Below are positions 20,625 to 40,467 of a stretch of DNA of 64,000 bases, piece by piece; position 1 is the first letter of the stretch, and every line of letters begins with the position of its first letter. The stretch covers positions 33,668-97,667 of the forward strand of contig JANWHD010000017.1 in assembly GCA_025450585.1 (NCBI GenBank), written 5' to 3'. The translations under genes and the position numbers were made by a program. The notes beneath the pieces are model-generated. The model searched no databases and was not told the DNA's origin. It saw only the letters and a list, made by a program, of their open reading frames with translations. This DNA comes from Solirubrobacterales bacterium (lineage in GTDB: Bacteria > Actinomycetota > Thermoleophilia > Solirubrobacterales > 70-9).

Positions 20625-22013
20625 ATGAAGACCGTGGTCAGATCGCTCCCCGACTCGCGCGTGCGGGTCGACGTCGAAGTCCCTGCCGAGGACGTCGACC
20701 GCGGCGTCTCCCGGGCCGCGCGCGGCCTGGCGCGGGAGATGCGGATGCCCGGCTTCCGCGCGGGCAAGGCGCCGCCCTCGCTGGTGGTCCAGCGTCTCGG
20801 CTACGGCAGCGTTCTGCAGGAGGCGATCCGCGAGTCGCTCCCGGAGTGGTACGAACGGGGCTTGTTGCACTCCGGGATCAGCCCGGTCGGGGACCCCGAT
20901 ATCGAGATCGTCACCGCCCCCGAGGCCGAGGGCGAGCCGCTCAGCTTCAAGTTCGAGATCGGCGTGCGGCCGAAGGCCGCTCTGGGCGAGTACAAGGGCC
21001 TGGAGGTGGGGCGTGCCGAGGCCGAGCCGTCCGAGGAGATCGTCGAGCGCGAGGTCGAGCGCATCCGCGAAGGCTTCGCCAAGCTCGAGCCAGTCGAGCG
21101 GGCGGCCGCCGACGGGGACGTGCTGCTGATCGACTACGAGGGCATGGTCGACGGCAAGGCCTTCGAAGGCGGCAAGGAGGCGGACCGCATGCTCGAGCTG
21201 GGCAGCGGCCGCTTCATCGAGGGCTTCGAGGCGCAGCTCAGCGGCGCCAGCGGGGGAGAGCAGCGCGAGGTGAAGGTCACCTTCCCGGAGGATTACCAGG
21301 CGGAGGACCTGGCGGGCAAGGACGCGGTCTTCGCGGTCGAGGTGAAGGAGGTGCGGGAGAAGGTCCTGCCCGAGCTCGACGACGAGTTCGCCGCCGAGGC
21401 TTCCGAGTTCGAGACCCTCGACGAGTTGCGCGCCGACATCGCCAAGCGCGTCGCCGAAGCGGTCGATGAGCGCGCCGAGCAGGACTTCCGCGTGGCCGCG
21501 ATCGACGCCGCCGTCGACGCGGCGACCGTCGAGCTGCCGGACGACCTCGTCGCGGCGCGGGCGGGGGAGCGCCTGGAGCGCTTCGAACGGCAGATTGCCG
21601 GCCAGGGGATGAGCCCCGAGGCCTTCCTGCAGATGCAGGGCAAGACCCGCGAGGAGTTGCTCGAGGAATCCAGGCCCGACGCGGAACGGGACCTGAAGCG
21701 CGAGGCCGTTCTCGCCGCGATCGCCGAAGCGGAGGAGATCGACGTCTCTGACGAGGAGATGATCGAGGCTCTCGCCCACAGCGCCGAGCACGAGCGCACG
21801 ACCCCCGAGAAGCTGCTGAAGCGCCTGCGTGAGAACGGCCGCGACGCGATGGTCCGCGAGGACATCCAGGTGCGCAAGGCGATCGACCTGATCGCCGGCG
21901 CGGCGAAGCCGATACCGCTCGAGCAGGCCGAGGCCCGCGAGAAGATCTGGACCCCGGAGAAGGAGAAAGAGGAGAAGGGCGAGCTCTGGACCCCGGGAGA
22001 GGGCAGCTCCTAG
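20625..22013 (+). CDS. tig: Trigger factor
   Basis: 462-aa ORF with an N-terminal ribosome-binding domain (GFRAGKAP), an FKBP-type PPIase core and an acidic C-terminus. It sits upstream of clpP. Confidence 0.9.
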   Translation: MKTVVRSLPDSRVRVDVEVPAEDVDRGVSRAARGLAREMRMPGFRAGKAPPSLVVQRLGYGSVLQEAIRESLPEWYERGLLHSGISPVGDPDIEIVTAPEAEGEPLSFKFEIGVRPKAALGEYKGLEVGRAEAEPSEEIVEREVERIREGFAKLEPVERAAADGDVLLIDYEGMVDGKAFEGGKEADRMLELGSGRFIEGFEAQLSGASGGEQREVKVTFPEDYQAEDLAGKDAVFAVEVKEVREKVLPELDDEFAAEASEFETLDELRADIAKRVAEAVDERAEQDFRVAAIDAAVDAATVELPDDLVAARAGERLERFERQIAGQGMSPEAFLQMQGKTREELLEESRPDAERDLKREAVLAAIAEAEEIDVSDEEMIEALAHSAEHERTTPEKLLKRLRENGRDAMVREDIQVRKAIDLIAGAAKPIPLEQAEAREKIWTPEKEKEEKGELWTPGEGSS

Positions 22014-22091: not shown

Positions 22092-23297
22092 ATGAACCGC
22101 TTCGCTTCCAAGCCCAGGTTCACGGCCGCGCTTCTGTTCGGGGCGATCTTCGCCGTGCGGGCGACCGTTGGAACGGTCGGGGACGCGATCAGCTTCCTCT
22201 ACGTCATACCCGTGGTGATCGTCGCGGTCGGCGCCGGCTTTCGCGGTGGCCTGGCGGCCGGCACCGTGGCCTTCGCCCTCTCCTCGCTCGGTTCGGTCGT
22301 CGAGCAGCTGCCGATCAGCCCGGTCGGCTACGTCAACCGGGCGATCGTCTTCCTGTTCATCGGCGGGTTGGTCGGTCGCTTCGCCGATCGGCTGCGTGCC
22401 CTGGAGGCCGAGAGCGCCCGTCACTTCAACCTCTCCCTCGACATGATCAGCACCGCTGGCTTCGACGGCCGTTTCAAGAGCGTGAACCCGGCCTTCGAGC
22501 GGATCCTCGGCTACGCGAAGGAGGACATGGTCGGCCGCCCCTTCCTCGATTTCGTCCATCCCGACGATCGCGAGAGGACCGAAAGGGAGGCGGCGGCGCT
22601 CGGCGAGGGCCGCCACACGATCCAGTTCCAGAACCGTTACTTCGACAAGGACGGCGAGGTGCACTGGATCGAGTGGGCCTCGGTGCCGATCCCCGAGGAG
22701 GAGATCATCTACGGGGTCGCCCGCGACGTGACCGAGCGCAAGGCCCTCGAGCTGGAACTGGAGCAGCTTTCGCGTCGCGATCCGCTCACCGGCCTGCTCA
22801 ACCGGCGCAGCTTCGACGAGGTTCTGGAGAGCCAACTCGCCTACACGCGCCGCTACGGCGAGGGCGGGGCCCTGCTGGTGGTCGACCTCGACCGCTTCAA
22901 GCAGATCAACGACCAGCACGGCCACGCGGCCGGAGACGAGGCTCTCCGTCAGGTCGCGCGCGTGCTCGACGACAACGTGCGCCTGACCGACACCGTCGCC
23001 CGAGACCCCGATGGCTTGGCCGCCCGGCTCGGCGGCGACGAGTTCGCCCTGCTGCTCCCGGAGGCCGACGAGGCCGGGGCGGAGGCGGTCGCCGAGCGTC
23101 TCCTCGCCGCCCTGGCGGCGGCGCCGCTCGAGGTCGAGGGTCGGCGGGTCGAGCTTGGGATCAGCGTCGGCGTGGCGCTCTTCGACGAGTACGGATGCCC
23201 GCCCGCGAAGGACCTGCTCGCTGCCGCCGACCGGGCGATGTACGTGGTCAAGGCGGCTGGTGGGGGAGGGGCGGTGCTCGCCGCCTCCCAGGCGTGA
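22092..23297 (+). CDS. Membrane-anchored PAS-GGDEF diguanylate cyclase
   Basis: 401-aa ORF with N-terminal TM helices, a PAS-like region, then DPLTGLLNRR...DLDRFKQINDQHGHAAGD...RLGGDEFALLL. Confidence 0.85.
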   Translation: MNRFASKPRFTAALLFGAIFAVRATVGTVGDAISFLYVIPVVIVAVGAGFRGGLAAGTVAFALSSLGSVVEQLPISPVGYVNRAIVFLFIGGLVGRFADRLRALEAESARHFNLSLDMISTAGFDGRFKSVNPAFERILGYAKEDMVGRPFLDFVHPDDRERTEREAAALGEGRHTIQFQNRYFDKDGEVHWIEWASVPIPEEEIIYGVARDVTERKALELELEQLSRRDPLTGLLNRRSFDEVLESQLAYTRRYGEGGALLVVDLDRFKQINDQHGHAAGDEALRQVARVLDDNVRLTDTVARDPDGLAARLGGDEFALLLPEADEAGAEAVAERLLAALAAAPLEVEGRRVELGISVGVALFDEYGCPPAKDLLAAADRAMYVVKAAGGGGAVLAASQA

Positions 23298-23333: not shown

Positions 23334-23927
23334 GTGCCGGCCATGAGTCCCCTGGTTCCGATGGTGGTCGAGCAGACCTCGCGCGGCGAGCGCGCCTTCG
23401 ACATCTACTCGCGCCTGCTGGGCGAGCGGATCGTCTTCCTCGGCACGCCCGTCACCGAGGACATCGCCAACCTGATCGTGGCCCAGCTTCTGCACCTGGA
23501 GTCCGAGGACCCCGACAAGGACATCAGCCTCTACATCAACTCCCCCGGTGGCTCCGTCTACGCCGGCCTGGCGATCTACGACACGATGCAGTTCATCAAG
23601 CCGGAAGTACAGACGATCTGCGTCGGCATCGCGATGAGCATGGGCGCACTGCTCCTGGCCGCCGGCGCCGATGGCAAGCGGATGTCGCTGCCCAACTCGA
23701 AGATCCTCATCCACCAGGTCTCCTCCAGCTTCCAGGGCCAGGCGACCGACATCGAGATCCACGCCAAAGAGATCATCGACGTGCGCACGCGCCTCGACGA
23801 GATCCTCGCCAAGCACACCGGCCAGCCCTTCGAGAAGGTCGCCAAGGACACCGAGCGCGACTACTTTATGAGCGCGGAGGAGGCGAAGGAGTACAACCTC
23901 GTCGACCGCGTGATCGAGCACCACTGA
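23334..23927 (+). CDS. clpP: ATP-dependent Clp protease proteolytic subunit
   Basis: 197-aa ORF: [19 protein letters not shown]..., catalytic Ser context [11 protein letters not shown], ...ILIHQ.... Confidence 0.95.
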
Positions 23928-24436
23928 AGCGCCCGGCCCTCCTCGTCCTCCTACTCGCAGCTCTTACCGTTCCGGCAGTCGCTGGCGCCGCTGGCGATGA
24001 CGGTGGCCTGCTCTACCACGACCACGTCTTCCCGGTCCAGGGTCCGCACGGCATCCGTGGCGCTATCGGCGAATTCGGAGCTCCACGCAGCGGCGGACGG
24101 GTCCACGAGGGCTTCGACGTCGTCGCCGTCTGCGGCGCGCCGCTCGTTGCGGTGCGAGGCGGCCGCGTCCTGCGCGCCGGCTACGACCCGGTGCTCTACG
24201 GCAACTACCTGACGATCCACGGCGAAAGGGAGAGGCGCAGCTACTTCTACGCCCACCTGCCCAGGCCGTCCCCGTTCGGCCGCGGCGACCGCCTCTACAC
24301 CGGCGAGCGCATTGGCGCGGTTGGCAAGACCGGCAACGCCCGCACAGTCGGCTGCCACCTCCACTTCGAGATCCACACCCGAGGCAGGCCGATCGACCCG
24401 GAGCCCTTCCTAGACCGCTGGGACCGCTACCGCTAG
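23924..24436 (+). CDS. Secreted M23 family metallopeptidase; start inferred at CTG 23924
   Basis: Track ORF 24152..24436 covers only the C-terminal part (HLHFEIH motif). In-frame upstream translation gives a signal peptide [20 protein letters not shown] and the HxGxD motif (VHEGFDV). There is no ATG, GTG or TTG in that stretch. CTG at 23924 overlaps the clpP stop. Confidence 0.7.
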
Positions 24437-24568: not shown

Positions 24569-26044
24569 TCAAGTGCTCAACAGCTCGCTCGCCGCGCAGT
24601 AGGCGTCACCGGAATAGAAAGGCGCGGTACCGCGATACAAGTCGATGAGATCGTCATAGCTGTGGACGTTGCTGAAGAACGTCCCGAAATCGAGGCCGGG
24701 AGGAAACAATGCGGGCCAGTCGATGACACCGCTTCGCATGACCATCCAGGCGAAACTGGCGAGTGAGTACGACATCAAGGGCCGCAGTCGGGTCTCGACA
24801 TCGGTACCCCCTCGCTGCGTGCCCGACTCACGAACGAAGATCGGATAGTGCTCTTTCAGCAGCGGCAACAGGCGTTCGGGGTCAAACCAGGCGTCAACGA
24901 TCATCCGGTCGTCTGCGCCGAGCCGAAGGCGACAGGCGGCCGCGTGGCGGGCGAGGTCGTGGGTCGCCGGAGCGAGCCGGGCCCCGAGTTCCAGGAAGCG
25001 GTCTGGAGGTGGCCAGAGCAGGCGCATACTGAGCCGCGACTGCAGACGGCGCCCTTCGTCGTCACCCTCGAGCCAGTCGTCGGGTTGCAACGCATCCAAT
25101 ATCTGCTCCAGCCGCCAACCGGGATGAAAATCCGACCAGCTCATCGAGTCGTCACGAAGCCGCCCGTACACCCGTCCCACTGGCGTGAAGAGAGCGAGAT
25201 CGACGACGGCAATGAAAGTGGATACGACGGAACGGAAGTCGTCCTCGCTGTCAACGGTGCCGGGGTACCGTTTGAGAAACAAACCGAAAAGGGCCCAGTA
25301 CAGGTTCGCCAAGGACCGACTCGCACCCGCCCAAAAGGCCTCGTCGGCATGCTCGACCAGCTGCGCGGATGCCTCGAACAGGTGCTGACCGCCGAAGGGC
25401 CGAGCTTCCGTGGAGCCGATAACGGGGAACGCCGGGTGCTTGTTCTCGTCCAAGAACTTGGCCCAGGAGAGAACGAATCGCCTCTGGTAATCGGAAAAGG
25501 GAGGCGGAGCGTCGGCGAACAGATCTTCGTCGGATCTGATCGCGCGGCTGCGGTCCTCATAGTCGATGAGCCAGCGAAGAATCGTCGCGAGGTCCGCGTT
25601 CCGTACCGATCTGAGGTCCATTCCCTCGAACCAGTTCTCGAGTAGAACGTCATGCGTCCAAGGAACGACGTGGGTCCGTACGAGTGAGCGGATCAACGCC
25701 TGGGGAGGAATCGAAAGCGCTCCGTCTCGGTCCGCGCGGGCGACATCGATGGCCGGAATCGGTATTCGCTCGCCGGCTTTGTACAAGCTGACGCAGTACA
25801 TGATCGTCTGCCGACCCGCGAGCTCTCCCAGCTCATCGAGGACGGCTCCGTACGGAGTCGAGGAGTGTAGCCAGTAGTGGTTGAGCTCGTGGGCCGTGAC
25901 ATTGCCGACGGCGGCGCCCGATCCGCCTGCGTGGATGACCGGACCGTAGTGATTGAAGCTCCCGCCCTCCGCGTGGAAGCGAAGCGGGTTCGCCTCCGGC
26001 TCCAACTCGACCAGTTCATCGAGGCCCGGAGTCACCGAGTTCAA
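24569..26044 (-). CDS. Hypothetical 491-aa protein with an HExxH zinc-metallopeptidase-like motif
   Basis: ...GNVTAHELNHYWLHSSTPYG... near the N-terminus; I recognise no other family. Its start overlaps the stop of the upstream trypco2 gene by 4 nt. Confidence 0.6.
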   Translation of the reverse strand: MNSVTPGLDELVELEPEANPLRFHAEGGSFNHYGPVIHAGGSGAAVGNVTAHELNHYWLHSSTPYGAVLDELGELAGRQTIMYCVSLYKAGERIPIPAIDVARADRDGALSIPPQALIRSLVRTHVVPWTHDVLLENWFEGMDLRSVRNADLATILRWLIDYEDRSRAIRSDEDLFADAPPPFSDYQRRFVLSWAKFLDENKHPAFPVIGSTEARPFGGQHLFEASAQLVEHADEAFWAGASRSLANLYWALFGLFLKRYPGTVDSEDDFRSVVSTFIAVVDLALFTPVGRVYGRLRDDSMSWSDFHPGWRLEQILDALQPDDWLEGDDEGRRLQSRLSMRLLWPPPDRFLELGARLAPATHDLARHAAACRLRLGADDRMIVDAWFDPERLLPLLKEHYPIFVRESGTQRGGTDVETRLRPLMSYSLASFAWMVMRSGVIDWPALFPPGLDFGTFFSNVHSYDDLIDLYRGTAPFYSGDAYCAASELLST

Positions 26045-26427
26045 AGAGTCTCGGTGTCTTCGGACGTCTCCTCGTCGCGCTCGGACGAGTGCCCCCTTGT
26101 GCCGCGGACGTTTCGGCGGCGTGCCTTCTCGTCGAGCGCGAACCGCAAATTGATCTTCTGCACCGCGCCGGACTCGACCCCTTTCGAGCCACCCAGCGTG
26201 ATGACTTTCAGATCGATGCCGCCGTGTCCTTCACCCCGCTTAATGGCGGTGAACTGGAGCTCTAGCTCCAGCTCCTCGACGACGAACAGTGCGGGCTTGC
26301 CGGCCACGCGCCGGCTGGCGTCAAGCGCCTCAAGTTCTTCCCGAACCTTCGACACCAATTCCGCGACGCCGAGATCAGAGTTGTCAGTCGGATCATCGCT
26401 AGGCCGAGAAGAACCTTGACTTCCCAT
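26041..26427 (-). CDS. Trypco2-like (trypsin-co-occurring domain 2) small adaptor protein
   Basis: 128-aa ORF. The pattern matches trypco2 family proteins as I recall them: ...LVSKVREELEAL...ALFVVEELELELQFTAIKRGEGHGGIDLKVITLGGSKGVESGAVQKINLRFAL.... Confidence 0.6.
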   Translation of the reverse strand: MGSQGSSRPSDDPTDNSDLGVAELVSKVREELEALDASRRVAGKPALFVVEELELELQFTAIKRGEGHGGIDLKVITLGGSKGVESGAVQKINLRFALDEKARRRNVRGTRGHSSERDEETSEDTETL

Positions 26428-26633
26428 GGTTCACGAGTATCACTTAGTCAGAAGGTTTACGCAAGGGCTCGTCATCTCGATCGCCGTTAGCTCTTGAATC
26501 TGTTTCCCGCATCACCGCTCCCCCTATGCGCGAGAGGCAGCAATTCCGTTGCACGCGAGAGCGGATGACGGATGCTCGCCGGCGCGACATACACCCGCTC
26601 CGACAGCGGCGGCCTGATCGCACAGAGCGCACA

Positions 26634-27083
26634 TTACGCATTCTTGATCGACTGTGGCAGTGTGAGCATCATGTCGCCCCAAAAGTCAGGGGGGTAGCGA
26701 TAGCGGCCGTCGAACCTGACCTCAATGGCGTAGGCCCGGGAGTCGACGTCGCGAGCAACGACAGCGAGCTCGATCCGGTAGTGGTGGTCCTCAAACAACT
26801 GGTCGCTGACCGCGCTTCCGGACTTCGCGGAGGCACCTTCTTGCCTAACACAGAGAGAGCCAGTCGTGAGCAATTCGTCCTCTGGCGGAGCAGGCGAGTA
26901 GCCACCTTGGCCGTCACTTACGGTTGGGGCAGGAAACATCAGCAGGTCAACGTGTCGCGCAACCCCGGGGGGGATCTGGACGCGCGGATCTGGCGTGGCA
27001 CTCCATCGCAGCGGGTAGATGTCGAGCGGGGGTTGCCAGGCCTCCTCCTCATCCTCAAGCGCGTAGAAAGCGGTTACGAGCAC
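26634..27083 (-). CDS. Hypothetical protein
   Basis: 149-aa ORF with a coding-like codon pattern and no recognisable motif. Confidence 0.45.
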   Translation of the reverse strand: MLVTAFYALEDEEEAWQPPLDIYPLRWSATPDPRVQIPPGVARHVDLLMFPAPTVSDGQGGYSPAPPEDELLTTGSLCVRQEGASAKSGSAVSDQLFEDHHYRIELAVVARDVDSRAYAIEVRFDGRYRYPPDFWGDMMLTLPQSIKNA

Positions 27084-27114
27084 TTCGACGTCCTCCGCAG
27101 AGCGGCGCCTCTTC

Positions 27115-27381
27115 TCATTCTTGACCCTCGGACGAAGCCAGTAAGCTGGGGGACTGTCCTTGCTGCCAAAACAGGTCCCGATTGCTCTCGGTCCAGTTGG
27201 GGTCTAGGTGTAGCGACAGGCGTGGACGCGACCTCCACTCCCGCCAGGTGTCGCGATAGAGCGCGACCAAGACCGCTGAAAGCGTGCCGACGGCGGCGGC
27301 GACCGCCGCACCGGCCACAATCCACTCGCGGGTTTCATGGGCCTCGGTCATCTGTTGGATCGTGTCGTTTCGGGCGGACAT
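27115..27381 (-). CDS. Hypothetical single-pass membrane protein
   Basis: 88-aa ORF with TM helix WIVAGAAVAAAVGTLSAVLVALY. It may be one frameshifted gene together with 26634..27083. Confidence 0.4.
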   Translation of the reverse strand: MSARNDTIQQMTEAHETREWIVAGAAVAAAVGTLSAVLVALYRDTWREWRSRPRLSLHLDPNWTESNRDLFWQQGQSPSLLASSEGQE

Positions 27382-28693: not shown

Positions 28694-29620
28694 CTACAGC
28701 CCTCCGGCGGGAGGTTCCGCAAGACGCCACACGTTCGCGACTACCTCTCGGCTCCGTCCGAAGATGAACCGCTCGGCGTCAGCGTAGGCCCGGAGGTTGA
28801 GCTCCGCCACCGCCTCGCTCGGCACCTTGATCCCCCTCAGCCCGTCGCCTTTCCCTGTCAGGACCAGGCAGGCGCCGGGAGCCAATGGAAGCGCCGTCTC
28901 AAGCCTACCGTCGCCTCTCCGCGTCACGTTGACGCCATTGTCGGAGGTGACGAACTCCCCTCCGCTTGGGCGCAGTAGGTACCACTCCATTTCCAGCGGA
29001 TGCCTGCCAGCCTCCAGCAGGTTGTCCACCATCGCCCGCCACGCCTCCTCGCGCACGTATTTGGCCCGCAACCGTCCCTCTGACTTCGCTCGCCTGAGGA
29101 ACCCGCGCATCTGCTCCAGCTCCTCGGCGGAGGACTCCACGCCGTGCCCCCGGGCCGCCCGGGCAAACGCATCTGGGTCTTCCAGGTGTTCAACCAGGAC
29201 GGCCTCGGCGGTCTCGCGGATCATCTCTTCAGCTCGCGCCAGCGCCTTTGGCGTCCGCTTCAACTGCAGCGCAATGAAGATCGAGATCGCAATCCGATCG
29301 TGATCGCCCATCTGCTCGGGGCACTCCAACAGCAGGTTGAGCGCCCCGGCAGCGTAATCCTCGATCAGGCTGATCAGCGACTCGATCCGGTTGTCTTTCT
29401 CGGCCTCCGTGGAGCGCACCGAGTAGAAGCGATGCCGGGTTGCGGCAGTCCTCACGGAGACGCGCGCGGTGGCCCCGCTGGTGGCGTCGAGCTGGAAGAT
29501 CCGGCCCTCGTTGTCGCCGGGTGGCTCGGCGAAACGTGCCAAAAGGAAGCGAGAAACGATGTGGTGGCGCTTTGCCTCCGACTCCGGCATCCGGCGCCGA
29601 CCGGCGCCGATCTCGCGCAT
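28694..29620 (-). CDS. DUF4238-like protein
   Basis: Internal Met at 29620 (or 29590) of ORF 28694..29791. The N-terminal ...KRHHIVSRFLLARFAE... resembles the H-x-V/I-P/S-x-F-x-L-x-x-F start of DUF4238. Confidence 0.5.
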   Translation of the reverse strand: MREIGAGRRRMPESEAKRHHIVSRFLLARFAEPPGDNEGRIFQLDATSGATARVSVRTAATRHRFYSVRSTEAEKDNRIESLISLIEDYAAGALNLLLECPEQMGDHDRIAISIFIALQLKRTPKALARAEEMIRETAEAVLVEHLEDPDAFARAARGHGVESSAEELEQMRGFLRRAKSEGRLRAKYVREEAWRAMVDNLLEAGRHPLEMEWYLLRPSGGEFVTSDNGVNVTRRGDGRLETALPLAPGACLVLTGKGDGLRGIKVPSEAVAELNLRAYADAERFIFGRSREVVANVWRLAEPPAGGL

Positions 29621-29694
29621 CGCGAATGCAAGCGACCCCTCGGGGTACGGATTGGACTCGGACGAAGTCACGCAGCTTTGGCGTCCTGCCGCGG

Positions 29695-30234
29695 TCAGCC
29701 GCCGTTGCCAAAGATCGCAACGAGGATGGCGCCCCCCGCGACGGTACCGACGACGGTCACGATCAGGACGGCCAGGTGTTCGCGCCACCACGGTGGCTTC
29801 GCGGGCGCGGGCGCCGGAGCGGGCTCAACACGAGTCGGAGTCGGGGGCACCTCGGTGCCGAAGGTTTTGAGGCCCATGTCGGGCACGGACCACCGCCGCT
29901 TCCCCTTCAGGGAGCCGATGTGCGTCGGCATTTCTTCGAGGATGTCCCACTGCTTCATGTCGTCGATCCCGTCGCCCTCGTCCACGAAACGGAGGATTCG
30001 CGCCGGGAGGTCGATACGCACCGGCCCTTCGTCCCAACGCTTGGCGCCCGCCACGACCATCGCCGCCTCGGCCTGCGGAGCGAGTTCCTTCAACGCCCGT
30101 TCGCGGTACGCCCACTCCTCATCCGCCCAGCCGTGGTCCGGGCTGCGGCGCTCCCCGAGGTATTCGCGGTACGTCCGCTCGAAGTCTTCGAGGACGGCGA
30201 TGTGGCGGTCGATCTGCTCAGCGGACGGCGACAT
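29695..30234 (-). CDS. Hypothetical C-terminally anchored membrane protein (paralog 1)
   Basis: 179-aa ORF with N-terminal SAEQIDRHIAVLEDFERTY and a C-terminal TM helix. It is a paralog of 30526..31125. Confidence 0.5.
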   Translation of the reverse strand: MSPSAEQIDRHIAVLEDFERTYREYLGERRSPDHGWADEEWAYRERALKELAPQAEAAMVVAGAKRWDEGPVRIDLPARILRFVDEGDGIDDMKQWDILEEMPTHIGSLKGKRRWSVPDMGLKTFGTEVPPTPTRVEPAPAPAPAKPPWWREHLAVLIVTVVGTVAGGAILVAIFGNGG

Positions 30235-30525: not shown

Positions 30526-31125
30526 TTATTGGCCGCCCAGTGCGAGATAGAGGATCACGCCCGCCACGACCGCGCCGCCGATAGTCAGCACCCAGGGGTT
30601 CGGTTCGTGCAGCCACCGCCAGTCGGGGTGGAATCTCGCGGCTGCCCGGCGCACTCGCCTGCCCCGGCTGTGCTCGCGGGCCTCCGCCTCCTCCAACCGC
30701 ATTTCCAGCCCGGCGATCTGCGTCGGCAGGCGGTCAGCGATGTCCTGCCGAAGGTCGTCGTCGGGGGCCTCGTCGCCGAACACGCTGGGTTTGACGTGGA
30801 AGATCAGGGACGCTAGGTCGTCGGCGATAAACGGGCTGCCGACCGCTGGCGGGCCGTAGAGGGCGAGCCCGCCGACGCCGGACGCCTCGATGGCGGCGTC
30901 GGCGCGAGGCGCGAGCTTCCGAATCTCCCGGTCTCGTTCCCTCCACTCGCGGCTCGAGTGGTGCAGCGACCCCCTCATCCGATTCTCCCGGTCGGCCGCG
31001 AGGTACGCGGTGTACTTCTGCTCGAACTCGGTCAGGGCGGCGATGTGCCGACGGATCTGCTCGGCGGATTCGGCCACGCCGGAAAGCGTAGACCGCCCCG
31101 AACAGGCGAGCAGCCCGCGTATCAC
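30526..31125 (-). CDS. Hypothetical C-terminally anchored membrane protein (paralog 2)
   Basis: 199-aa ORF with SAEQIRRHIAALTEFEQKY and a C-terminal TM helix LTIGGAVVAGVILYLALGG. The true start may be the internal GTG (VAESAEQ...). Confidence 0.5.
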   Translation of the reverse strand: MIRGLLACSGRSTLSGVAESAEQIRRHIAALTEFEQKYTAYLAADRENRMRGSLHHSSREWRERDREIRKLAPRADAAIEASGVGGLALYGPPAVGSPFIADDLASLIFHVKPSVFGDEAPDDDLRQDIADRLPTQIAGLEMRLEEAEAREHSRGRRVRRAAARFHPDWRWLHEPNPWVLTIGGAVVAGVILYLALGGQ

Positions 31126-32528: not shown

Positions 32529-34148
32529 ATGACTGAAGACGAACTTGTGCAGCGGGGCCGCGAGTGCGAGGCAAACGGCGACTTGCAGGGGGCCGAGGCC
32601 GCCTATCGAGAGGCTGACAGTCAAGGGGGCGCTGAGGGCGCAATTCTCCTCGGGCTGGTTCTGAAGAAGCGCGGGGACGCGTCGGGTGCCGCGGATGCGT
32701 TCCGCCGCTCCGAGTCCCGAGGCCACCCTGAGGCTGCTGGAGAACTGGGCAGCCTTCTTGACGATGCGGGCGATACGGAAGCGGCAAGGGCCGCCTACGA
32801 GCGTTCAATTGCCGCTGGTGGAAGGTTGGCGCGGCTGAACCTTGGACTGATGCTGGCCCAGCGCGGCGCTGCAGAGGAGGCTCTTTCGCACCTGCGTATC
32901 GCCGAGGAAGACGGCGACCCGACGGCCTCGTGGGCAATCGGCAAGATCATGGAGGATCGCGGAGATTTTCAGGCAGCCATCCCAGCATACGAGCGCGCGG
33001 CCGATGCCGGCGATCCGAACGCCGCATTCGGCCTGGGGGCTGTCTTCGAGGCGCAGGGCGATCGCGACCAGGCCCGGGCAGCCATGCAAAGAGCCAGCGA
33101 ACTCGGACATGAGGGCGCCACCGAGGTTCTCCAGAAGATGGCATTTGAGGCTGACGCGGCAACGCGGGTCAAGCCGCTTGCGGCCGAAGAGGAGCGTCTC
33201 CTCCAGACGGTGCACCGTGCAGACGGAAATCGCAACCGGATCCTTCTTACCCACCGCCGCCCAAGCGACGACGAGGTGATGGGCACCGGTTCGCCCGTCA
33301 ACTTCATCGCCATCATCCGCAGCACCGACCAGGACCCGAGTGAGCCACCATTTGCATGGCAGCGGGGGTCGACCGAGGCGAGCATCTACGAAGCGGTCGC
33401 GGAAGCGTTCGTAAACGCCGGATCCCTTCCGGGGAGCACCGTGTCGATGCAGCCAGACCTCGAGTGGTTTGTCGACCGCATCCGCGAGGCAAGAGGGTCG
33501 GCGGTGAGCCCCGCAGAGGCCACCAACAAGTTGGTGGAGCTCTACGCCGCCACATGCGGCGAGGTGATGGCGACCTTCAACGCCTGCCTGGAGGTCGCGA
33601 ACCAGGCGATCGGAGCTCGGGAAACGGCGGATATACGCCCGCAGCATGAGATCTCCATTCGGAACTTCACAACCATCGTTGAAAAGGCGGAACAGGAGCT
33701 CCCCCCGCTCTACGAGGCTTTCGACAAGGCTTGCTCGGGAGCCCGTGATGCAGCCGCTCAACTGCGACGGGCGGCTTCCGACCCCCTGCTCGCGGAGATG
33801 AAGCTCGCAATGGCCTACGAAGGGACCGATGTACTGGATCAGGTCGCAACCGCGAAGGGAATCCTGGGCGCAACCTTCGGACCCACCCCCGACGCTTTCA
33901 TCGAGGGCCTTGAGCGGGCCAATGCGCTGATACAGAATCCGCCAGACGAGGGCAACATCTACTGGGGTCCGACCGCACCTTCCGCCGCGTCTGAGCCCGC
34001 CACGAGCAGTACCGTACTTCCAGATCCCGTGTCTTCTTCCCAGGCGGACGAGAGAGCCTGCCCGTGGTGTGCTGAGACGATCAAGTCCGCTGCCGTCATC
34101 TGTCGCTTTTGCGGACGGGACGTGGATATGCAGACAAACGTCGGCTAA
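32529..34148 (+). CDS. TPR/Sel1-like repeat protein with a C-terminal zinc-ribbon
   Basis: 539-aa ORF. The N-terminus has repeated G(D/N)xxxAxxxYxxAAxxG units. The C-terminus has CPWCAETIKSAAVICRFCGRDV. Confidence 0.7.
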   Translation: MTEDELVQRGRECEANGDLQGAEAAYREADSQGGAEGAILLGLVLKKRGDASGAADAFRRSESRGHPEAAGELGSLLDDAGDTEAARAAYERSIAAGGRLARLNLGLMLAQRGAAEEALSHLRIAEEDGDPTASWAIGKIMEDRGDFQAAIPAYERAADAGDPNAAFGLGAVFEAQGDRDQARAAMQRASELGHEGATEVLQKMAFEADAATRVKPLAAEEERLLQTVHRADGNRNRILLTHRRPSDDEVMGTGSPVNFIAIIRSTDQDPSEPPFAWQRGSTEASIYEAVAEAFVNAGSLPGSTVSMQPDLEWFVDRIREARGSAVSPAEATNKLVELYAATCGEVMATFNACLEVANQAIGARETADIRPQHEISIRNFTTIVEKAEQELPPLYEAFDKACSGARDAAAQLRRAASDPLLAEMKLAMAYEGTDVLDQVATAKGILGATFGPTPDAFIEGLERANALIQNPPDEGNIYWGPTAPSAASEPATSSTVLPDPVSSSQADERACPWCAETIKSAAVICRFCGRDVDMQTNVG

Positions 34149-34458: not shown

Positions 34459-36177
34459 TTAAGGCAGAAGATCGGCCGACTTCGAACCCTTTCTTGCCCT
34501 CCTGGTAAACGAACGTCCACGCACCGCCAGTCTCGCAACCTTCGTACTCGGTTCTCCGCCGGTCGGAGTGAACGTGGCCACTGCCTCAAACCTCAGCGGT
34601 CTCCCAGCCTTGAGTCGCAATCTCGCCTTTCTCGTCAGACGCAGAGGGACCCACACGGTTCCGGGGCCGCCCGAGGCGCTGGACGGCCTTATCGCTCTCT
34701 TGAAGCGGTCACGCGATGCTCGTCGTTTCGGGTGCCGAGACAGGCGGGCGACCACGCGCACCCTTCCCGCCGAGGACAGCGTGATCTTTAGCTTTTGCTT
34801 TTTCACCCGACCGATCCTGAATTCATTTGACGGCTTGGGCTGGGGTTCCGAGGACAGCGGTTCGGGGCGCGAGCAGAAGATCAGTTCGATGCGAGAAACC
34901 AACCCCGTTTCTCCGGCTTCTTCGTCTCGGACCACCAGGTTCCAGGTTCCGTTGATCTGCTGGCTGTTGAGCCAATTGCTTTCATCGCCAATAGGAGGCT
35001 GTACTATCACTGGATTCACCGACACCGTGCTCGAGTCGGCCGCGTAAGGATCGAAGCGCTCAACCATGTGGGGTTCGATTGAACCTCGACGAAGTCGCAA
35101 TGGTATTTCGGAGCGGCTAGGCGTCCAAAGCGAGATCGCCAAATCTTGCATTCGCGGATGGGTCAGTTCGAGCCCAACGGCCGCTCGGCTGATCGTGTCG
35201 CCATCCGTTACCGGGATCGGGAAGGCGACTCCTCCCCAATCAGGAATCGTTCCCGGAGACGGCGTGCTTGTGTATGTCCGGCATCTCGGTTCTTCGGCTG
35301 GCAGAATGGTGGCTGAGAGACGATAGGTCGCTTCCGGGCCGCCTTCTCCTCCTTCGGCTGTAGTGACGACGGCGTAATAGGTACCGCCCTTCAAGACCGT
35401 GAACTCATACGCGTCTGAAGGCACTCCGTACGGTTCCCTGTTGTGGACGGCAGAGATGTATCCGGGTTCGCCCAACAAGCCGAACCCTAGACTGCCATTG
35501 AAGCTCTTGCCATCACGCTCGAGATCAAGGTCCAGTGAGAGGAAAACGGTATCGCCGGCCTGTAGTTGCATGGCGAAGTAGTCGCGGTCTGGCGGATCTT
35601 GCCTGCCAGAGACGTAACCGCTGGCAAGAGAATCAGCGGTTTTGAGGGTGCTATTGGGCTCACTCTCCGGGACTGGACTCCCAGATCGCAACTGCAGATA
35701 GAGATCGTAGGGGACTACTTCGCCGCCAAGCGATGGATCGGTCACCTTCAGGTAATAAGTACCGCTTACCGGAATAGTCGCGCCGGCGATGCTTGAGGCA
35801 CTAAAGGCGCCATCGCCATTGTCAGTCTCGATCACCGATTTGCCGTCTGGCGCGACTAGAGTGAGCTGTGTTTCACCAAAGTTGCCCAACGCATTTGTCA
35901 CTGTCGCGGTGAAGACTCGGTCTCCGGCATTTGCACTGAAACTGTAAACATCAACGTCTCCGGCTGGGGAGACACTTCCCCGGATCCGCTCCCCACTCGT
36001 GATCGGAGTGGCGGTCGCAGGAGTGTCGTTTGGCTCTTGCTCAAAGGCCGGCATCGAGGGCAGGGTTGTGGGAGTGAGAGTCGCTTCTTCAGCCAGCGCA
36101 GGCGTTGACGAAGCCAGTAGTGATACCGCTACGAGCACGACTGCTAGCCCGATTACTCGCAATCCCCTCCGTGTCAC
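34459..36177 (-). CDS. Secreted protein with two PPC (pre-peptidase C-terminal)-like domains and a proprotein-convertase P-domain; no catalytic domain seen
   Basis: GTG at 36177 precedes the signal peptide (TRRGLRVIGLAVVLVAVSLLASSTPALA). PPC motifs EQEPNDTPATATPI...GDVDVYSF and ESEPNSTLKTAD...DRDYFAM. P-domain-like ...AAVGLELTHPRMQDLAISLWTPSRSE.... Confidence 0.65.
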   Translation of the reverse strand: MTRRGLRVIGLAVVLVAVSLLASSTPALAEEATLTPTTLPSMPAFEQEPNDTPATATPITSGERIRGSVSPAGDVDVYSFSANAGDRVFTATVTNALGNFGETQLTLVAPDGKSVIETDNGDGAFSASSIAGATIPVSGTYYLKVTDPSLGGEVVPYDLYLQLRSGSPVPESEPNSTLKTADSLASGYVSGRQDPPDRDYFAMQLQAGDTVFLSLDLDLERDGKSFNGSLGFGLLGEPGYISAVHNREPYGVPSDAYEFTVLKGGTYYAVVTTAEGGEGGPEATYRLSATILPAEEPRCRTYTSTPSPGTIPDWGGVAFPIPVTDGDTISRAAVGLELTHPRMQDLAISLWTPSRSEIPLRLRRGSIEPHMVERFDPYAADSSTVSVNPVIVQPPIGDESNWLNSQQINGTWNLVVRDEEAGETGLVSRIELIFCSRPEPLSSEPQPKPSNEFRIGRVKKQKLKITLSSAGRVRVVARLSRHPKRRASRDRFKRAIRPSSASGGPGTVWVPLRLTRKARLRLKAGRPLRFEAVATFTPTGGEPSTKVARLAVRGRSFTRRARKGSKSADLLP

Positions 36178-36440
36178 CTCGATGAGCTTACTCGGTCGGT
36201 GGCCAGCCGTCGGTCTAAGGGTGGCGATTCCTGTCGGCACCAGACGACCGTTCGGACGGAGAGCGCTTGAAGAACTCTTCCAAAGCTCCTCCCCACCCGT
36301 TGATATGGCCCGCCCACGTCTTCTTATGGCATGTAGCCAGCGTGGTTCCGCTTCGCGCGTTTTGCGAGCGCGTTGACGTGCGCAAGTCGCGCGCTCCCGC
36401 AACGGGACGAGAACCAACCGCCTCAGTCGGCAGGGTGCGT

Positions 36441-39180: not shown

Positions 39181-40467
<1,287 letters not shown>

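Follow-up and report, generated by a model that had tools for sequence, protein, structure and literature searches.

A Trypco2/Pepco-family gene paired with a rare HExxH protein family: a candidate NTPase-free variant of protease-licensed death modules

What is the function of a Trypco2 gene whose neighbour encodes an HExxH protein instead of a trypsin-like protease? This question is raised by a 64,000-nucleotide (nt) stretch of high-GC actinobacterial DNA from a Solirubrobacterales bacterium (contig JANWHD010000017.1; hereafter the window), on which the gene of a 128-amino-acid (aa) protein of the Trypco2/Pepco family overlaps the start of a gene for a 491-aa protein with HELNH at residues 52-56. 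We lean towards reading this pair as a two-gene death or defence variant of Pepco-protease systems that is free of nucleoside triphosphatases (NTPases), and in which an undescribed HExxH family would replace the serine or cysteine protease as licensing factor.

Kaur et al. (2020, eLife, PMC7159879) gave Trypco1 and Trypco2 their names purely because they co-occur with trypsin-like peptidases in NTP-dependent conflict systems, and in a later paper Trypco2 was regarded as an effector-associated domain or adaptor. Evans et al. (bioRxiv 10.1101/2025.11.14.688446) have since described Pepco (i.e. Trypco1/Trypco2) as a death effector, namely a β-barrel pore that is licensed by C-terminal cleavage. 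SsPepco from Streptomyces subrutilus forms β-barrels of 9-10 subunits that are stable to heat and sodium dodecyl sulfate, and the trypsin domain of the adjacent Avs4 cuts it after Ile97, with loss of a charged 2-kDa tail. SsPepco is required for toxicity, is toxic alone only if truncated exactly at Ile97, and depends for its toxicity on an N-terminal amphipathic helix (L10, E15, L17) (Evans et al., 10.1101/2025.11.14.688446). The word adaptor, under which an earlier note on this DNA had introduced the small protein, is therefore outdated. A metalloprotease partner is mentioned neither by Evans et al. nor in other papers that mention Trypco2.

The elements of the module, in window positions as throughout and all on the minus strand, are the following.

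26041-26427, minus strand: Trypco2/Pepco-family gene (PF19631), 128 aa, putative latent β-barrel pore-forming effector
24569-26044, minus strand: HExxH-family gene, 491 aa, putative metal-dependent processing enzyme and possibly sensor that would license Trypco2
25865-25891, minus strand: codons of H52-E-L-N-H56-Y-W-L-H60, putative metal-binding/catalytic helix
25373-25375, minus strand: codon of E224, candidate third metal ligand or catalytic residue, invariant in the family alignment
26041-26044, minus strand: gene junction, TTG start over TGA stop (cTTTGA), read from the sequence
26320-26373, minus strand: N-terminal amphipathic helix of Trypco2, residues 19-36, LGVAELVSKVREELEALD, aligned with the SsPepco helix
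26044-26139, minus strand: C-terminal tail of Trypco2, residues 97-128, ALDEKARRRNVRGTRGHSSERDEETSEDTETL, presumed inhibitory and presumed to be removed or modified
26083-26103, minus strand: tail motif G109-T-R111-G-H-S-S115, the span onto which the SsPepco cleavage site projects
26428-26533, minus strand: upstream non-coding leader of ~106 nt, likely promoter and 5' untranslated region, ending at the edge of DNA that is 88% identical in a relative

Both open reading frames (ORFs) were found where the earlier note had placed them, and the stretches ELELELQFTA, GGSKG and QKINLRF, on which it had based its assignment of the small protein, are present in the 128-aa ORF. The assignment itself held: the ORF matches the PF19631 Trypco2 model with 57.7 bits (cutoff 24.2, E=1.4e-15, profile positions 2-76 of 78), and SsPepco, the sequence of which we took from the supplement of Evans et al., scores 65.6 bits against the same model. 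The two proteins are ~23% identical and align with each other at E=3e-5 in hhalign, and against 42 Streptomyces Trypco2 proteins hhalign gives E=1.3e-5; a homolog search started from the window Trypco2 reached its close clade only.

The likeness extends to features that matter for SsPepco function. In the alignment, L10, E15 and L17, which SsPepco needs for toxicity, pair with V25, E30 and L32 of the window protein and are thus conserved in kind, with L32 as the sole invariant column. The hydrophobic moment of the helix is 1.27, compared to a shuffle mean of 0.75, which is only suggestive, as 9.7% of the shuffles reach this value; in the strands, polar and hydrophobic residues alternate as expected. 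The Pfam domain ends at residue 96 and leaves a 32-aa tail outside, the last 18 residues of which are 56% charged (seven acidic, two basic). The distal part of this tail is comparable in length to the SsPepco tail and stands at the position equivalent to the 20-aa tail cut off by SsAvs4.

How tightly are the two genes joined? The TTG start of the 491-aa ORF (26044-26042) overlaps the TGA stop of Trypco2 (26043-26041), which makes a 4-nt overlap that includes the stop codon, as the earlier reading had it. There is an alternative GTG start three codons downstream, and the N-termini of homologs align from TTG-proximal residues. Among the contigs of relatives that we compared with the window (loci L001-L051 and the contigs P0018 and P0059), the two genes overlap by 4 nt in L004 and L007, by 14 nt in L001 and by 26 nt in L008, and are separated by 8-15 nt in L013, the P0018 contig and L011. 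Overlaps or gaps of at most 15 nt were thus seen at eight of the nine junctions read; in L006, an overlap of 61 nt was called. This tight spacing is compatible with translational coupling. A simple scan found no sigma-70 consensus upstream of the pair, and scans for promoters and terminators were uninformative.

The pairing is not peculiar to the window. We collected neighbourhoods by exact-protein look-ups and by scanning metagenome contigs with a degenerate DNA pattern of the catalytic-helix motif, and read them with our own hidden Markov models (HMMs) and Pfam. In approximately 19 of approximately 30 distinct assessable loci with a member of the HExxH family, Trypco2 lies directly upstream on the same strand (the window, L001, L004, L006, L007, L008, L010, L011, L013, L015, L022, L026, L029, L030, L031, L035, L040, the P0018 contig and, with a truncated copy, L048; L034 was counted with L022 as a degraded near-duplicate). 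Gene order and strand are always the same where the two are paired, and the linkage reaches partners that are only 19-25% identical to the window protein, including one from a Rhizobium leguminosarum isolate (L013, 25%). The flanks differ: in L001 the pair sits between clpX and clpP, i.e. at the same site as in the window, while TMEM175 and SHOCT genes flank it in L004 and an AlpA/HTH mobile element in L013. Moreover, across the 14 loci in which both genes are complete, the pairwise identities of one protein are correlated with those of the other (Pearson 0.92, Spearman 0.85, Mantel p=1e-4), which shows that the genes moved as a pair and did not exchange partners. The proposal of a two-gene unit was hence borne out, whereas the suspicion that it might be a remnant was not, the window pair being intact and recurring as a self-contained unit.

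A close copy of the module in L048/L049 has an intact Trypco2 (82% identical) and an HExxH gene (86% identical) that is cut after residue ~280. In its surroundings (L048 3057-10222, and L049), a restriction-modification gene of the MmeI type is seemingly split by two tandem ISL3 transposases, beside TraG-like conjugation genes. This region looks like a decaying defence or mobile-element region.

What, then, is the 491-aa protein? As previously remarked, HELNH is its sole recognisable feature: neither Pfam nor NCBIfam nor PADLOC yielded a match. A word-indexed search of 5.8 billion proteins returned 14 homolog clusters of 36-90% identity, all annotated as 'hypothetical' and, where named, from Solirubrobacterales, and among 1.84 billion representatives a profile picked up 214 at E<=1e-3 (65 of them at E<=1e-30), mostly 450-530 aa long. 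Searching GTDB genomes with an alignment of the close family gave only two loci. The proteins are thus a real, rare and unnamed family rather than chance ORFs. When 57 full-length members with 19-63% identity to the window protein were aligned, H52, E53, H56, G66, P97, E224 and R311 proved invariant in all of them, so that the motif seen in the window is conserved in homologs down to 19% identity. H60 is conserved in at least 90%, T63, P64 and Y65 are nearly invariant, as are E163 and R22, and the consensus of the region reads HELxHFxxHxSTPYG.

An AlphaFold2 model built from a 15-sequence alignment is almost wholly α-helical, with a predicted local distance difference test score (pLDDT) of 83 and a predicted template modelling score of 0.89. 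It places a short β-hairpin (residues 29-38) ahead of the HExxH helix (44-62), an order which, in the model, is that of zincins. When residues 1-300 were modelled alone, the pLDDT dropped to 45.7; this collapse suggests a single intertwined domain, probably without independent domains. The weak sequence hints all point to gluzincin-type peptidases and may serve as leads rather than as tests: Peptidase_M78 matched below threshold in 4 of the 57 members (best E=0.008), the YpfJ and SprT models gave single non-significant matches, and projannalysin (E=1.3, likewise non-significant) aligned over the strand and HELxHF. On its motif, the 491-aa protein can be called a putative metalloprotease. We also considered membership in the α-ketoglutarate (αKG)-HExxH enzymes and rejected it: TIGR04267 matched neither the window protein nor the 57 relatives at E<=0.1-1, while the PflC control, a sequence taken from the supplement, scored 98.5 bits, and hhalign of the family against PflC gave a probability of 0.2%.

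If the HExxH protein acts on Trypco2, its substrate site should be sought in the tail. Within this otherwise variable segment, G-x-R (G109 and R111 in the window) is invariant in 9 of 9 linked Trypco2 proteins and in 13-14 of 14 in a wider set, usually in the form L-L-G-[STA]-R-[AG]-H. In addition, 14 of 16 complete linked tails carry P-[LI] at the C-terminus or close to it; the window tail ends in TETL, without that proline. As a canonical comparison set we used 92 Streptomyces Trypco2 proteins, which were combined with 14 HExxH-linked ones in a joint L-INS-i alignment of 106 sequences; at L051, a canonical locus taken as a control, the gene after Trypco2 encodes a trypsin-NB-ARC-TPR protein. 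Canonical tails have the consensus DEALGG-x-R-A-[KR]-I↓R-R (the arrow marks the cut in SsPepco), often with an R-P-W-E-x end, and individual residues recur as G92 in 88, R94 in 81, A95 in 78, I97 in 82, R98 in 69 and R99 in 87 of the 92 proteins. SsPepco is itself atypical at R94 compared with this set.

The joint alignment matches L-G-(G)-x-R-A between the clades and carries I97↓R98 to S114↓S115 of the window protein, while the ungapped register from the SsPepco alignment carries it to T110↓R111; the profile-profile alignment stops short of the tail motif, and it is its ungapped extension that gives the latter register. By alignment, the mapped SsPepco cleavage site therefore projects somewhere within T110-S115, the register being ambiguous, and G-x-R-A is a family-wide tail motif. 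In either register, the canonical Ile and the Arg-Arg following it are missing from the HExxH-linked clade as aligned: the Ile column is occupied in the 14 sequences by S/A/R/Q/P in the joint alignment or by T/S/A/G/L/V in the ungapped register, and never by Ile, and H-[SA]-x stands where canonical proteins carry Ile-Arg-Arg. A clade that has lost the canonical motif, kept L-G-x-R-A and acquired a P-[LI] end of its own is consistent with a substrate site adapted to another enzyme. We had also considered, from the SsPepco alignment alone, the invariant G-x-R as the scissile site with Arg at P1'; this was withdrawn, as the motif is family-wide in the 92 canonical sequences.

The extreme C-terminus deserves a separate remark. 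Many longer canonical Trypco2 proteins end in R-P-W-E-x with a nearly invariant W (P0186-P0266, alignment A7), a motif absent from the 117-aa SsPepco, and the C-terminus of the HExxH-linked clade reads [DE]-x-x-P-[LI]-[KE]. It may be that the family as a whole carries a terminal P-[WLI]-[ED], a feature not yet described that could serve for docking or as a plug.

Where does the module end? The DNA shared with L048/L049 at 88% identity spans window positions 25208-26533 only, and tblastn found no counterparts of the neighbouring ORFs of the window beside six other copies of the pair (L001, L004, L006, L008, L010, L013). The module is thus about 24569-26533. Two small upstream ORFs (26634-27381), which the earlier note had tentatively attached to it, were rejected as module parts; lying beyond the edge of the shared DNA at ~26533 and lacking a counterpart at the six other copies, they belong to a separate insertion. 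This insertion of ~12.7 kb (~26.6-39.1 kb) lies between Trypco2 and clpX, has a lower GC content (0.58-0.67) and is absent from the syntenic L001. The genes flanking the module are listed here.

20625-22013: tig, flanking housekeeping gene
22092-23297: PAS-GGDEF gene between tig and clpP
23334-23927: clpP, flanking housekeeping gene
end at 40467: clpX, flanking housekeeping gene, with valS also nearby

Housekeeping genes around the module are 68-94% identical at the protein level to those of a Solirubrobacterales metagenome-assembled genome (tblastn). The pair itself is 66-67% identical, versus 85-94% for clpP, clpX and valS; tig, at 75%, and the PAS-GGDEF gene, at 68%, have diverged about as much as the pair.

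Beside the pair in the window, L001, L004, L006, L008 and L013 there are no MoxR-type AAA+ or vWA/VMAP genes, and there is no conserved third gene either: an upstream P-loop gene in L007 and a downstream pentapeptide-repeat gene in L006 do not recur. The former (L007 288-1049) encodes a 253-aa protein and, in this 40%-identical relative, runs into the beginning of a Trypco2 ORF called at 214 aa; it matches AAA_18 with 37.6 bits and, weakly and over the P-loop only, nSTAND5, NB-ARC and NACHT. L007 may represent a three-gene version with an NTPase, of which this is the single occurrence.

Some further features of the surroundings were noted. The insertion holds a DUF4238 gene (28694-29791), genes for a TPR and zinc-ribbon protein (32529-34148) and a PPC/P-domain protein (34459-36417), a response regulator, a GGDEF protein and a GNAT; two small genes within it (29695-30234 and 30526-31125) are apparently paralogous, with similar N-termini (AEQI[DR]RHIA.L..FE), and neither a tRNA nor an integrase was seen at its edges. 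A 94-aa M23 fragment listed at 23924-24436 on the plus strand is probably a complete small secreted M23 peptidase with HEGFD and HLHFE motifs and a signal-peptide-like stretch; its frame has no stop upstream as far as a CTG that shares bases with the TGA of clpP (cacCTGAag) and is a possible start. This gene is absent at the syntenic L001, which has only 64 nt between the HExxH gene and clpP. The PAS-GGDEF diguanylate-cyclase gene is found between tig and clpP in both Solirubrobacterales genomes (L001 10175-11392, 68% identity), an unusual insertion into an otherwise classical tig-clpP-clpX cluster.

Family members without Trypco2 bear on the question, too. One standalone clade (L017/L019, L025/L036, L041/L046; N-terminus MARFDLAPVDPDIEPFVRKSAGGSWY) has no small upstream partner and is found ~140 nt downstream of a gene for a prolyl-aminopeptidase-like α/β-hydrolase, the family gene of L025/L036 being apparently truncated. 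Members of another clade (L033, L037/L047, L039) lie directly downstream of the gene for a different conserved protein of ~120 aa without a Pfam match (…LAERYL…DLFSLIPQHLPEY…RWRYCERR…DPDLQD…, with a hydrophobic stretch and CGCK/CQCE at its end), the positions of which are as follows.

L033, 1736-2119: gene of the ~120-aa partner
L037, ~2318-2683, reverse: gene of the ~120-aa partner
L039, 80-526: gene of the ~120-aa partner

L014 and L024 have other upstream partners that belong to no family we could assign, and L042, L043 and the P0059 contig have none. In L014 (2247-4844 and 5638-6988), two tightly packed genes of this kind (192 aa and 245 aa) precede the Trypco2-less member, and an 865-aa Prok-RING_4 protein is encoded further upstream. 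The ~120-aa protein is perhaps another small effector, or substrate, of the HExxH family, and these arrangements suggest that the family pairs with interchangeable small proteins; the occurrence of different small upstream proteins in other clades fits the logic of an enzyme with exchangeable small substrates.

How might the window pair work? By homology with SsPepco, Trypco2 would assemble into a β-barrel that is held harmless by its charged C-terminal tail. The HExxH protein would be cytoplasmic, made from the same transcript and probably translationally coupled to its partner. Upon a cue, be it phage infection or another stress, it would act as a metal-bound enzyme and process the tail, presumably by cleavage of a peptide bond, within or just after the conserved G-x-R-[AG]-H. 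The barrel would thereby become a membrane-permeabilising pore, and the cell would be killed or arrested. The HExxH enzyme would thus do what a trypsin-like or caspase-like protease does in canonical Pepco systems. Since no NTPase or other sensor is fused to it or conserved nearby, its large helical body is the likely site of sensing and regulation, and since Pepco has been reported to be a death effector, the large protein is more likely an activator than an effector itself. A bolder extension, which we put forward tentatively and consider doubtful, would see in the 491-aa family structurally new metallopeptidases, without a Pfam, MEROPS-like, PDB or BFVD relative, that combine signal sensing and site-specific proteolysis in one helical domain and gate not only Trypco2 but also unrelated small toxins (those of L033/L037/L039, L014 and L024); they would make up a third, metalloprotease-based branch of protease-licensed cell-death modules without any NTPase.

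Several observations weigh against the licensing model. The Pepco mechanism is based on one preprint and on one protein that shares ~23% identity with the window Trypco2. For the third metal ligand there are candidates only (H60, E224, E163), and no known fold was recovered: Foldseek of the whole model gave a best E of 0.35 (TM ~0.1) against the PDB and of 0.15 against BFVD, and profiles (A1, A2 and the N-terminal-only A6) hit PDB sequences that were non-significant or unrelated. The co-divergence may equally reflect simple co-inheritance and by itself is no proof of physical co-adaptation, and about a third of the family members lack Trypco2, so that the enzyme is not obligately tied to it. 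As for defence, PADLOC-DB v2 gave no match at E<=1 for the pair or seven neighbouring ORFs, tblastn found no copies of the pair in plasmid and phage collections and a motif scan found none in IMG/VR, and two genomes have it between the housekeeping genes clpP and clpX, outside a recognised defence island. The only P-loop ATPase that Pfam scanning of the neighbours showed within ~13 kb is ClpX; for these neighbours, the earlier statement that no NTPase sensor is nearby holds, and the partner is an HExxH protein without a Pfam match instead of a trypsin-like or caspase-like protease. A defence role is suggested by analogy, by the patchy and mobile distribution of the pair and by its faster divergence than that of flanking genes.

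The alternatives differ mainly in what the HExxH protein would do to the tail, if anything. It might act non-hydrolytically, by Fe/αKG-type hydroxylation, oxidative backbone cleavage or another modification. HExxH enzymes are not always hydrolases, which is a further point against the licensing model: the αKG-HExxH enzymes ChlH, BpmH, PflC and PosC have a zincin-like fold and hydroxylate peptides, some HExxH proteins were once annotated as peptidases, and PflC and PosC cut off a conserved C-terminal ARMD tetrapeptide oxidatively. Conserved motifs near the substrate C-terminus exist in the window system as well, the invariant R311 and the nearly invariant R22 could bind a co-substrate, and the absence of any match to a hydrolase family is in keeping with this rival; that neither a peptidase family nor a zincin fold was matched counts against the licensing model. 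Yet TIGR04267 and hhalign against PflC were negative, HExxH lies at residue 52 of 491 here as opposed to about 250 of 380 in PflC, and neighbours typical of peptides that are made on ribosomes and modified after translation (RiPPs), i.e. radical SAM, MNIO and transporter genes, are lacking at the loci examined; besides, PflC can hydrolyse peptides with Zn, Co or Fe, so that tail removal could result either way. On this evidence we consider non-hydrolytic action unlikely. That the adjacency is meaningless, with a chance HExxH motif in unrelated neighbours of one lineage, strikes us as very improbable. About a third of the family lacking Trypco2 and the many copies from related Solirubrobacterales genomes would be in keeping with it, but the linkage persists down to ~20% identity, in a Rhizobium isolate and diverse metagenomes and amid unrelated flanks, the Mantel test gave p=1e-4, and HExxH is invariant in 57 of 57 members.

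Two further explanations accept the partnership and distribute the roles differently. In the model of the earlier note, the HExxH protein is a toxic metalloprotease effector that attacks cellular targets and is recruited or regulated by Trypco2 as its adaptor or scaffold. The original definition by co-occurrence (Kaur et al. 2020), the effector-associated label of the later paper, and a conserved, co-diverging linkage that fits any physical partnership are in line with it. We nevertheless regard it as quite unlikely, because SsPepco, a PF19631 member, was found in experiments to be toxic alone once truncated at its cleavage site, the window Trypco2 keeps the helix, strand and tail features of SsPepco, and the tail motifs are conserved as for a substrate. 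We give an equally small chance to a toxin-antitoxin-like arrangement, in which the partner would keep Trypco2 harmless, by binding its tail or degrading mis-assembled or activated pores, until loss or inhibition of the partner, e.g. by a phage, frees the pore. An overlapping, co-diverging two-gene layout is typical of toxin-antitoxin and immunity pairs, and the absence of a sensor is in line with this model. However, the intact Trypco2 beside a broken partner in L048/L049 would be lethal under a strict antitoxin model and is easier to accommodate if the partner is an activator, which is a mild objection; in the characterised SsPepco system the partner protease is indeed an activator, and an antitoxin that merely binds has no need of a strictly conserved, catalytic-type HExxH. 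We thus return to Trypco2 as the latent pore and the HExxH protein as the enzyme that would license it.

What would follow from this? Death effectors that are gated by proteases increasingly emerge as a dominant principle of immunity in prokaryotes, in parallel to the caspase-gasdermin axis, and Pepco/Trypco2 pores have so far been tied only to serine and cysteine proteases fused to sensors. If the proposal is true, the HExxH enzyme would be a third catalytic class of activator, and the pair a minimal two-gene version without an NTPase; such a version, with sensing necessarily built into the enzyme, would be attractive for the study of protease latency. A further gain would be an enzyme family that is new and has a fold predicted with confidence but without a match. 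The change in the cleavage-site region marks concrete positions that can be tested, and the alternative small partners may be new toxins.

The window pair can be set beside several known systems. Like the gluzincin minimal peptidases (M78/ImmA-IrrE, projannalysin 4jix, SprT-like), the 491-aa protein appears to have a β-strand, an HExxH helix and a conserved acidic residue downstream; unlike in these, its matches remain below significance, there is no fold match, and its ~490 aa apparently form a single helical domain. The layout of an HExxH enzyme beside a small protein that is presumably acted upon at its C-terminus recalls FxSxx-COOH-type peptide-processing systems (Kaur et al. 2020) and the αKG-HExxH RiPP enzymes (TIGR04267/IPR026337; PflC/PosC), but the window protein has no detectable homology to the latter, and the substrate would be a folded Trypco2 rather than a hypervariable precursor, without radical-SAM, MNIO or AP-ATPase neighbours. 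With the Trypco-trypsin pairs of the vWA-MoxR/VMAP ternary systems (Kaur et al. 2020, PMC7159879) it shares a Trypco2 beside a predicted peptidase, although the peptidase class differs and NTPase genes are not found nearby, neither in the window nor at most other loci. The closest counterpart is SsPepco-SsAvs4 of Streptomyces subrutilus. There, the partner is a trypsin-like or caspase-like protease and not an HExxH protein, and the window partner lacks the STAND NTPase, FGE or peptidoglycan-binding sensor domain; with respect to canonical Pepco, [KR]-I↓R-R is absent, and the C-terminus of the linked clade is P-[LI]-[KE] instead of R-P-W-E. In both, however, the small protein belongs to PF19631, its gene stands directly upstream of the gene for a large enzyme, and the protein has an amphipathic helix, strands and a charged tail with the L-G-(G)-x-R-A motif.

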